Of a DNA stretch of 64,000 nucleotides, positions 12,644 to 12,726 are shown in pieces; position 1 is the first letter of the stretch; each line of letters starts with the position of its first letter. The DNA comes from an uncultured Pseudomonadota bacterium (GTDB lineage: Bacteria > UBA10199 > JADFYH01). A program made the translations under genes and the position numbers. The DNA is taken from positions 124,163-188,162 of the forward strand of contig CAYLKF010000001.1 of the NCBI GenBank assembly GCA_964384365.1, read 5' to 3'. Below the pieces are notes generated by a model. The model was given only the letters and a program-made list of their open reading frames with translations. It was not told the origin of the DNA and ran no database searches.

Positions 12644-12726
12644 GAATATAAGGTATAAGGTGCAAGGTATAAGGTATAAGGAATTAGATATTCCCCTCAA
12701 ACCTTAAACCTTAAACCTTAAACCTC
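12644..12726. repeat. Inverted arrays of degenerate heptamers, (TAAGGTN)x5 then (AACCTTA)x4, abutting the purA start codon
   Basis: Read directly: ataaggtataaggtgcaaggtataaggtataagga ... aaaccttaaaccttaaaccttaaacct. The same architecture is seen at 16929 and 38232. Confidence 0.55.

Follow-up and report, generated by a model that had tools for sequence, protein, structure and literature searches.

Convergent pairs of heptanucleotide repeats before purA, argG and ctaA of an uncultured bacterium, possibly kept as mRNA hairpins

Heptanucleotide units are the most abundant long simple sequence repeats (SSRs), and polymerase slippage in steps of 7 nt has been proposed to generate them (Mrazek 2007, as summarised in PMC4679880). 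In this study, we analysed 64 kb of DNA from an uncultured bacterium (contig CAYLKF010000001.1; the whole stretch is hereafter named the window), in which three elements made of such units stand just before the genes purA, argG and ctaA. In Xanthomonas, about 185 arrays of the unit GGGAATC are found per genome, typically with four units each and about 90% of them intergenic, and 70-75 convergent pairs of arrays are formed per genome (Rehm et al. 2015, PMC4692102). These arrays are transcribed, and lie “almost exclusively” closer to their 5' neighbouring open reading frame (ORF), at 28 versus 160 nt; 16% of them have convergent ORFs as neighbours and 7-8% have divergent ORFs, and their function “remains to be elucidated” (PMC4692102). 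Arrays of TAACTGA are located just upstream of start codons, in spacers devoid of a ribosome binding site (RBS), in marine Beggiatoaceae, cyanobacteria and some Bacteroidetes (MacGregor 2015, PMC4679880). In Nostoc, complementary Hept_L (TTTTGAA) and Hept_R (TTCAAAA) arrays lie upstream of recF/recO, and their deletion changed the output of a reporter (bioRxiv 10.1101/2022.06.06.494920).

By analogy, what the three elements most probably work like is a system of another build, the repetitive extragenic palindromic (REP) sequences and the bacterial interspersed mosaic elements (BIMEs). In enterobacteria and pseudomonads, these imperfect extragenic palindromes lie between co-directional or convergent genes and in operon mRNAs, stabilising the segment upstream and influencing the cistrons next to them. 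Such effects were reportedly described by Newbury in 1987 and by Liang, Rudd and Deutscher in 2015, and a REP near a stop codon is said to affect translation. REPs start with 5' GTAG, have a family-specific sequence of about 20-40 nt, are present in tens to hundreds of copies, are linked to REP-associated tyrosine transposases (RAYT), and contain no tandem heptamers. The elements described here differ from them in being built of heptamers, with three copies in 64 kb, unequal units, lengths of 71-92 nt and no terminal motif shared among the three.

The first element wholly occupies the 83-nt gap between serA and purA (12644-12726, minus strand), and consists of (TAAGGTN)x5, an 11-nt loop and (NACCTTA)x5. 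In the mRNA direction it reads UGA (serA stop)-GAGGTTT AAGGTTT AAGGTTT AAGGTTT GAGGGG-AATATCTAATT-CCTTATA CCTTATA CCTTGCA CCTTATA CCTTATA-TTC-ATG. Its parts and neighbours are:

12727..14316, minus strand: serA, phosphoglycerate dehydrogenase, the upstream cistron, whose stop codon abuts the hairpin
12693..12726, minus strand: 5' arm of the purA element, G-rich in the mRNA (GAGGTT TAAGGTT x3 TGAGGGG), directly after the serA stop codon (12727-12729)
12682..12692, minus strand: apical loop of the purA element, 11 nt, AAUAUCUAAUU in the mRNA, entirely different in the sister species introduced below
12644..12681, minus strand: 3' arm of the purA element, C-rich in the mRNA (CCTTATA x5, one unit being CCTTGCA, plus TTC), abutting the purA ATG (12641-12643)
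11354..12643, minus strand: purA, adenylosuccinate synthase, the downstream cistron

Sequence and coordinates are exactly those that an initial annotation of the window had given for this leader. Tandem Repeats Finder (TRF) detected both arrays (12647-12681 and 12695-12725, period 7). The sense RNA was predicted to fold at -36.8 kcal/mol (z -5.5 relative to shuffles), as five helices of 5-6 bp with single U-U mismatches between them. These mismatches result from the difference between the two arms, which consist of TAAGGTT and TAAGGTA when read on their respective G-rich strands; each array is uniform internally but differs from its partner. An N-terminal extension of PurA, starting from a TTG at 12700, was ruled out, as the spacer differs by 5 nt in the sister species (L210) and the spacer bases vary.

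The second and third elements precede argG, which opens the operon that ends with purA, and ctaA:

17035..17063, minus strand: conserved promoter-like motif TTGACG-N17-TACCAA, with TG before it, upstream of argG and outside the repeat, read directly from the sequence as context
16929..17020, minus strand: argG leader element, with two degenerate arms separated by a loop, a 5' G-rich one (GTAAGTG TTAAGTG ATGAGTG TTAAGGA) and a C-rich one (CCTTACCA CTTGCTG CCTATG CCTTACAA CTTCATA CCTT), recognised from its sequence, TRF and periodicity at lag 7
15726..16928, minus strand: argG, argininosuccinate synthase, first gene of the operon argG-aminotransferase-serA-purA
38232..38302, minus strand: ctaA element, TAG (stop)-GAA TAAGGTA TGAGTTT TAAGGTG TAAGGGG-AATCCTTTGTCTT-TAAGCCTC AAACCTT AAACCTT GAACC-TTG (start) in the mRNA direction, recognised from its sequence, TRF and pattern matches
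37206..38231, minus strand: ctaA, COX15/CtaA heme A synthase, TTG start

The recurrence of the same layout at argG and ctaA, also pointed out in the initial annotation, is thus real at both sites, with two corrections. The argG element is better delimited as 16929-17020 than as 16929-17030, since positions 17021-17030 are plain leader, and its last unit, CCTTATG, holds the argG ATG (16926-16928). At ctaA the position stands, and the start codon is a TTG (38229-38231) overlapping the last repeat unit. The ctaA element takes up the entire gap after the gene for cytochrome oxidase subunit IV/cytochrome c, and folds, over its own span only, at -24.6 kcal/mol (z -2.9). At purA and ctaA, and more weakly at argG, the folds bear out that the two arms are complementary and would form a hairpin, long but imperfect, that reaches the start codon. 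In the window, GGGGAAT is found at the apex of both of these elements.

The motif TTGACG-N17-TACCAA is identical in five genomes, PurA being only ~70% identical: the window, L122 (5925-5960), L124 (5965-5998), L125 (2165-2195) and L210 (558-592), where the L numbers designate the retrieved loci. It is probably the promoter of the argG operon. As it is upstream of the element, we infer that the argG element lies in a 5' untranslated region (UTR), the purA and ctaA elements being presumably intercistronic. A short upstream ORF of 8 codons (AUG AGU ... UAA) in the argG leader of the window was dropped, because it has no counterpart in L210.

As had been noted for purA, no canonical Shine-Dalgarno (SD) sequence adjoins the start codon, and none was found at the starts of argG and ctaA either. 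About 40% of the ORFs of the window have an SD of the AAGGAG type. A Bacteroidota host, considered as a reason for absent SDs, was excluded by these many AAGGAG sequences and by the labels of the PurA neighbours (Deltaproteobacteria or bacterium).

We next describe how far these elements stand out in the 64 kb. Allowing up to 3 mismatches, the pattern TAAGGTNTAAGGTNTAAGG gave 12 matches, located at the purA and ctaA sites only, for 0.07 expected. TRF reported period 7 for all three elements, with 3.3-5 copies. Autocorrelation at lag 7 was 0.71 for purA, 0.61 for ctaA and 0.48 for argG, and none of 5000 shuffles reached such values (p < 2e-4); the top 7-periodic windows of 80 nt across the stretch were these three loci, and none besides. 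All three elements lie exactly between called genes, outside coding sequence, and their stems open 0-5 nt past the upstream stop codon and close 0-6 nt short of the downstream start. Rfam 15 gave zero matches at the gathering score over the entire window, and consensus scans found no terminator-like sequence and no sigma-70 promoter within the elements. Their tails are UUC-AUG, AUG and UUG, unlike the U-tract after a GC-rich stem of an intrinsic terminator.

The purA, argG and ctaA elements are therefore intergenic heptanucleotide SSRs in the convergent-pair layout, a known class that the initial annotation had not recognised. With the pairs described by Rehm et al. (GGGAATC in Xanthomonas campestris/axonopodis, GGGGA(T/C)T in Nostoc), they have in common units of 7 nt in about 4 copies, an intergenic location, the opposite-strand arrangement as a convergent inverted repeat, the nearness of each G-rich array to the ORF on its 5' side, and the scarcity between divergent genes. 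They differ by the unit, TAAGGTN, and by the host, which belongs to another, uncultured lineage. They are also sparser, three copies in 64 kb as compared to ~185 per Xanthomonas genome, and their unit number is constant between sister species, whereas lengths vary extensively between Xcc and Xac. Moreover, TAAGGTN has GG instead of GGG, and the G-quadruplex that motivated the study of Rehm et al. therefore cannot form; apart from one GGGG per element, no G-tract of 3 or more is present. Such tracts characterise the subset treated in that study and not paired arrays as such. The architecture and the orientation rule are thus already known; what is new is the unit, the lineage of the host and the data on conservation given below.

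Resemblance to the TAACTGA arrays (MacGregor 2015, PMC4679880) lies in the position, a few nt before starts lacking a canonical RBS, and in a suspected role in translation. However, the TAACTGA arrays are direct repeats, with 1 inverted set out of 170 in the BOGUAY genome and no hairpin in the model, whereas the arrays studied here have another unit and are paired and inverted. The short tandemly repeated repetitive (STRR) heptamers of heterocystous cyanobacteria are likewise tandem and intergenic, near starts or promoters, with complementary left and right arrays; their units and their host differ. A cyanobacterial setting was excluded for the window, where the highly iterated palindrome HIP1 (GCGATCGC) occurs just twice in 64 kb and genes for an Alternative Complex III (ACIII) and a caa3 oxidase are present.

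Conservation was examined in the one species pair that could be compared. The only exact match to PurA is on a Logan contig of 5 kb that has the same sequence as the window, and the sister species (L210 and L211) was reached via a 90% protein cluster. Identity between the two species is 94.8%, 97.5% and 70.3% at codon positions 1, 2 and 3, respectively. All three elements are present at the same junctions of the sister species, with the same unit numbers. Over the 38 kb shared, no heptamer pair was gained or lost, and no indel in steps of 7 nt was seen between the two species, the length differing by +5 nt at purA (in the loop and at the base) and by 0 at ctaA. The insertion-prone repeat family suggested in the initial annotation is thus not supported on this short time scale: copies were neither gained nor lost, and unit numbers did not change. 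In this single pair, constant unit numbers are compatible with slippage at the time of origin. The three elements are older than the split of the two species, and have been retained since.

The purA element is 85.5% identical in the sister species: the TAAGG/CCTTA cores are invariant, the loop is wholly changed and the spacer bases vary. At ctaA, identity is 97.2% for the element and only 81% for the CtaA protein. The sister copies of purA and argG fold at least as well as those of the window (purA -38.3 kcal/mol, z -6.8; argG -30.8 kcal/mol, z -3.6), and the ctaA orthologues range overall from -24.4 to -27.2 kcal/mol. Of 8 elements, 7 fold more stably as sense RNA than as antisense, and each has 2-4 G-U pairs. 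On single-sequence folds, divergence is 11.6% at paired positions and 32% at unpaired ones, a roughly threefold gap in which the unpaired positions diverge at about the rate of third codon positions. When a consensus structure is used, 12 of 12 changes keep the pair, a count biased by construction; the unbiased count given below is not significant, and for these reasons covariation was set aside as a proof of structure and support was drawn only from the gap in rates. A G/A change seen in parallel at the apices of purA and ctaA, which could have suggested co-evolution with a trans-acting factor, was also dropped, as argG shows the opposite and the site toggles between A-U and G-U. We conclude that the stems or core motifs are under purifying selection, probably as RNA, covariation adding little to this. 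With their retention in the sister species and stems better conserved than loops, the elements look maintained rather than accidental.

Distant relatives were checked at two junctions, serA-purA and coxIV-ctaA, and have spacers of 0-25 nt there. Six of them (L122, L124, L206-L209) have at serA-purA either an overlap or a spacer of up to 25 nt, A-rich and free of arrays. In L212, whose CtaA is 66% identical, the coxIV-ctaA spacer is 15 nt long (AGTGGGGAATCTCCC, L212 9986-10000) and contains GGGGAATC, a sequence also present at the ctaA apex of the window (38262-38275), which hints at growth in place. An element of the same design is present in the serA-purA spacer of L125, 82 nt long: (TGAGGTG)x4, a loop, (CNCCTCA)x4 and ATG, folding at -38.6 kcal/mol (z -5.4). 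Because the closest PurA relatives of L125 are without the element, it is most simply an independent gain. As there are 2 elements in ~16 spacers for L125, a coincidence at the same site is only mildly unlikely (~0.1).

We then examined the class of heptamer arrays in other genomes. An exact scan for TAAGGTNTAAGGTNTAAGG, with one genome per species, returned at least 120 loci (L002-L121), and the figures that follow concern the matches listed. These are mostly from Bacteroidota, with also Desulfobacterales, Planctomycetota, Acidobacteriota, Gemmatimonadota, Moorena and others. Around them, arrays with units of many sequences abound and period 7 dominates: TRF gave 410 rows in 852 kb, as compared to 32 rows in a background of 649 kb of metagenome DNA taken without selection; this background consists of listed metagenome contigs with PurA relatives 48-57% identical, and is unusable for synteny. 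When two arrays are adjacent, the order is G-rich then C-rich in 60 cases (57 in a stricter period-7 set) and the reverse in 6, four of which belong to a single chain, L082. The bias is also seen in pairs without AAGGT (11 versus 1), and the arms are mutually pairing in 45 of the 57 pairs. The elements of the window, L125, L210 and L211 all follow the G-rich then C-rich order, with gaps of 11-19 nt, and the arms of the three window elements start 0-5 nt from the flanking ORFs.

Among the same matches, 177 array clusters were counted: 114 between co-directional genes, 38 between convergent and 25 between divergent ones, which is near background. For clusters containing a G-then-C pair, about 24 are co-directional, 12 convergent (enriched) and 2 divergent (rare). 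With crude ORF calls, the median distance of single G-rich arrays is 18 nt to the 5' neighbouring ORF and 122 nt to the ORF on the opposite side, and C-rich arrays mirror them, at 83 and 7 nt (Fisher p = 4e-5). In other words, the G-rich strand runs 5' to 3' away from the nearest ORF, so that trailers are G-rich, leaders C-rich and pairs convergent, across the phyla and units sampled. The order is kept even where neighbouring units are not complementary (GTGAATG/CCTTATA in L004, GTGAGTG/CCTTAAA in L021, AAGGTGT/CTAAAAT in L013), and because these neighbours follow the rule, it is independent of hairpin formation. The “dedicated” control element at start codons, as the three leaders had initially been interpreted, does not fit with this picture: the same architecture occurs in many phyla, with units unlike an SD; its frequency between co-directional or convergent genes is roughly that of the background, and only divergent gene pairs show a deficit.

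Two loci of the scan deserve a mention in their own right. In L116, a metagenome-assembled genome (MAG) of Flavobacteriales (JAIYBR010000270.1), five convergent heptamer pairs were found in one 8-kb stretch (2403-8000), each with a different unit (AGGAGAA/CATTCTC, AATGGAG/CATTCTC, TGACGAG/TCATTCG, AGGGCGA/TCGCACA, AGGGGTA/ACCTTAT) and with arms pairing at -36 to -95 kcal/mol. In L082, a Bacteroidales MAG, 8-9 alternating arrays (ATAGTTT-type then AAACCTT) occupy 500 bp (4586-5076) as tandem convergent pairs.

We propose, with a probability that we put at about 0.45, that slippage in 7-nt steps made the repeats, and that these are now kept as cis-acting mRNA hairpins coupling the translation of purA and ctaA to that of the upstream cistron; transcription through the elements, the coupling mechanism and an effect on expression are what we infer here. 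Three convergent pairs would have arisen in very short transcribed spacers by polymerase slippage. Since the stem begins 0-5 nt after the stop and ends 0-6 nt before the start, the SD-less initiation region would be buried in the operon mRNA and thus closed to loading by free 30S subunits. Ribosomes that terminate on serA or coxIV would have to open one to two repeat units at the base of the stem, freeing the complementary units and the start codon, and the remaining stem would hold the start beside the stop codon. The ancestral spacers (0-25 nt) are short enough for translational coupling; that of purA and ctaA may thereby have been kept, and perhaps made obligatory, despite 70-80 extra nt. 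As REP elements do, the stem may in addition protect the mRNA upstream of it against 3' exonucleases and, being so near the stop codon, may modulate the upstream gene. In front of argG, a first cistron, the weaker hairpin would act as a constitutive damper that keeps basal initiation low, or could stabilise the 5' end.

Several observations weigh against this proposal. The argG element is without an upstream cistron to open its hairpin, which makes the coupling part unfit for argG, and its fold in the window genome is weak, no better than shuffles (z -1.5). Constraint is unexceptional, the elements being about as conserved as other alignable intergenic DNA of the sister pair (mean 87.4%). When the structure is taken from one species, 19 changes at paired positions keep the pair and 20 break it, for a chance expectation of 39% kept. 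In the L125 element, the antisense strand folds better than the sense. In addition, 38 of the 177 clusters among the matches listed lie between convergent genes, where the start codon is uninvolved, so that a role in translation cannot account for such repeats in general. Finally, a regulatory role was sought for the Xanthomonas arrays by Rehm et al., and none was found (PMC4692102).

Some of these points speak for the first alternative, in which the elements are a neutral by-product: slippage repeats would expand in tolerant spacers, the hairpin and the position at the start codon would follow from the tiny size of the spacer, and expression would not be affected. In favour of it are also the presence of the class in all intergenic contexts in near-background proportions and with many arbitrary units, as well as the fact that most relatives do well without the element; the published search with a negative outcome (PMC4692102) and the lack of an excess of pair-preserving changes, when structure is taken from one species, point the same way. 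However, three elements have been kept with constant unit numbers over 30% third-position divergence, with no indels in 7-nt steps, and their stems are about threefold less diverged than loops and spacer bases, which diverge like third positions. An element 97% identical beside a protein 81% identical, as for ctaA, also speaks against it. We consider this explanation rather unlikely, while taking it seriously.

A second alternative is based on the likeness of the units to SD and anti-SD sequences. The UAAGG or GAGGUG units would bind the tail of the 16S rRNA, as a standby site, a tether or a split RBS, the CCUUA units would mask them, and loading would be switchable. In phage T4 genes 38 and 25, an intervening stable stem-loop brings an SD-like sequence effectively closer to the start codon. 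These T4 hairpins are small, unique and not built of repeats, unlike the elements of the window, for which such a mechanism is a mere possibility. The likeness, already noted in the initial annotation, holds for UAAGG/CCUUA here and for GAGGUG/CCUCA in L125, where the units of an independent element are UGAGGUG, to be compared with UAAGGU. The loop-proximal unit is AAGGAG or AAGGGG at the three loci of both species, the SDs of the organism, whose 16S rRNA lies outside the window, are of the AAGGAG type, and at purA and ctaA an SD-like unit is at the 5' base of the stem, right after the upstream stop. But the likeness is not a property of the class: AATGGAG/CATTCTC, TGACGAG/TCATTCG, AGGGCGA/TCGCACA, and GGGAATC in Xanthomonas have the same architecture with units unrelated to an SD, and the argG arm, TAAGTG, is not SD-like. 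Moreover, the SD-like units are locked by base pairing in all predicted folds, which leaves this alternative improbable.

The orientation rule itself could reflect more than slippage, namely a directional addition of repeats anchored at gene boundaries, or a general function related to ribosomes. Under the ribosome option, a ribosome that terminates would be retained by the SD-like array near the stop codon, then passed by the stem across ~80 nt to the SD-less start. If true, this would be a bacterial “shunt” form of termination-reinitiation, and the serA-purA stem present in two lineages would be a case of convergent selection. We regard this as a long shot.

A mobile origin, in which a small palindrome, similar to a MITE (miniature inverted-repeat transposable element) or to REP/RAYT, was inserted three times in spacers, is very unlikely. 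The three copies have a common core, with the GGGGAAT apex shared by purA and ctaA, and mobile elements are active in the lineage: an insertion of ~140 nt, MITE-like, with terminal inverted repeats GGCACCTCTAAAAA...TTTTTAGAGGTGTC, is present in the coxIII-coxIV spacer of the sister genome (L211 12355-12495) and not at the homologous site of the window (39092-39148, a 57-nt spacer). This insertion is unrelated to the heptamer elements, which have no flanking target-site duplications and no terminal inverted repeats distinct from the arrays. Their arms differ systematically (TAAGGTT versus TAAGGTA, each on its own strand), indicating array-wise homogenisation, and the units differ by locus. That zero copies were gained or lost in 38 kb, and that the 15-nt spacer of L212 (AGTGGGGAATCTCCC) has the GGGGAATC of the window apex, suggesting growth in place, also oppose a mobile origin. 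Least credible is a role at the DNA level, as a cruciform or as an iteron-like array for a protein acting on double-stranded DNA: it would account for the dyad symmetry and for a polarity rule that is the same on both strands, but the 7-bp period is mismatched to the DNA helical repeat, the G-U pairs on which the stems rely become mismatches in DNA as well as on the opposite strand, and the elements are inside operons with no overlapping promoter consensus.

Concerning the genomic context, the operon argG-aminotransferase-serA-purA is kept in every relative fetched. In L208 (6564-7141), a small ORF and a gene for a PemK-family toxin are placed between argG and the aminotransferase gene of this otherwise conserved operon. 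The closest PurA homologues reach 71% identity at most, and their MAGs bear the label “Deltaproteobacteria bacterium” or “bacterium”. The ACIII set of the window (42521-50712) includes an ActB-like protein of 1021 aa with a variant twin-arginine translocation (TAT) signal, an NrfD-like protein, ActD and cytochrome c. Directly after it, on one strand, come SCO1, coxII-I-III-IV, ctaA and ctaB (37206-42476), in an order that is the same in L211 and L212. The spacer at 50140-50193 (54 nt) is only 48% identical to that of the sister species, for an intergenic mean of 87%, and is the fastest-evolving of the aligned spacers. A 21-nt tandem repeat (CCCCCACCTCGCAGATCAATC, 2.1 copies) is located at 55964-56008, within an ORF of the opposite strand (55777-56904).

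Among the long simple repeats of bacterial genomes, heptanucleotide ones are the most frequent, and their function has been little studied since 1990. The locus described here offers a clean test case, with three elements in spacers of housekeeping genes, a known ancestral state of 0-25 nt and a sister species from which constraint can be estimated. If the stems are inert, hairpins of 80 nt on a start codon would be free of cost, which would inform models of translation initiation. If, on the contrary, they enforce coupling or set the ratios between cistrons, this would be the first function for this class of repeats, and would explain why its arrays face each other.

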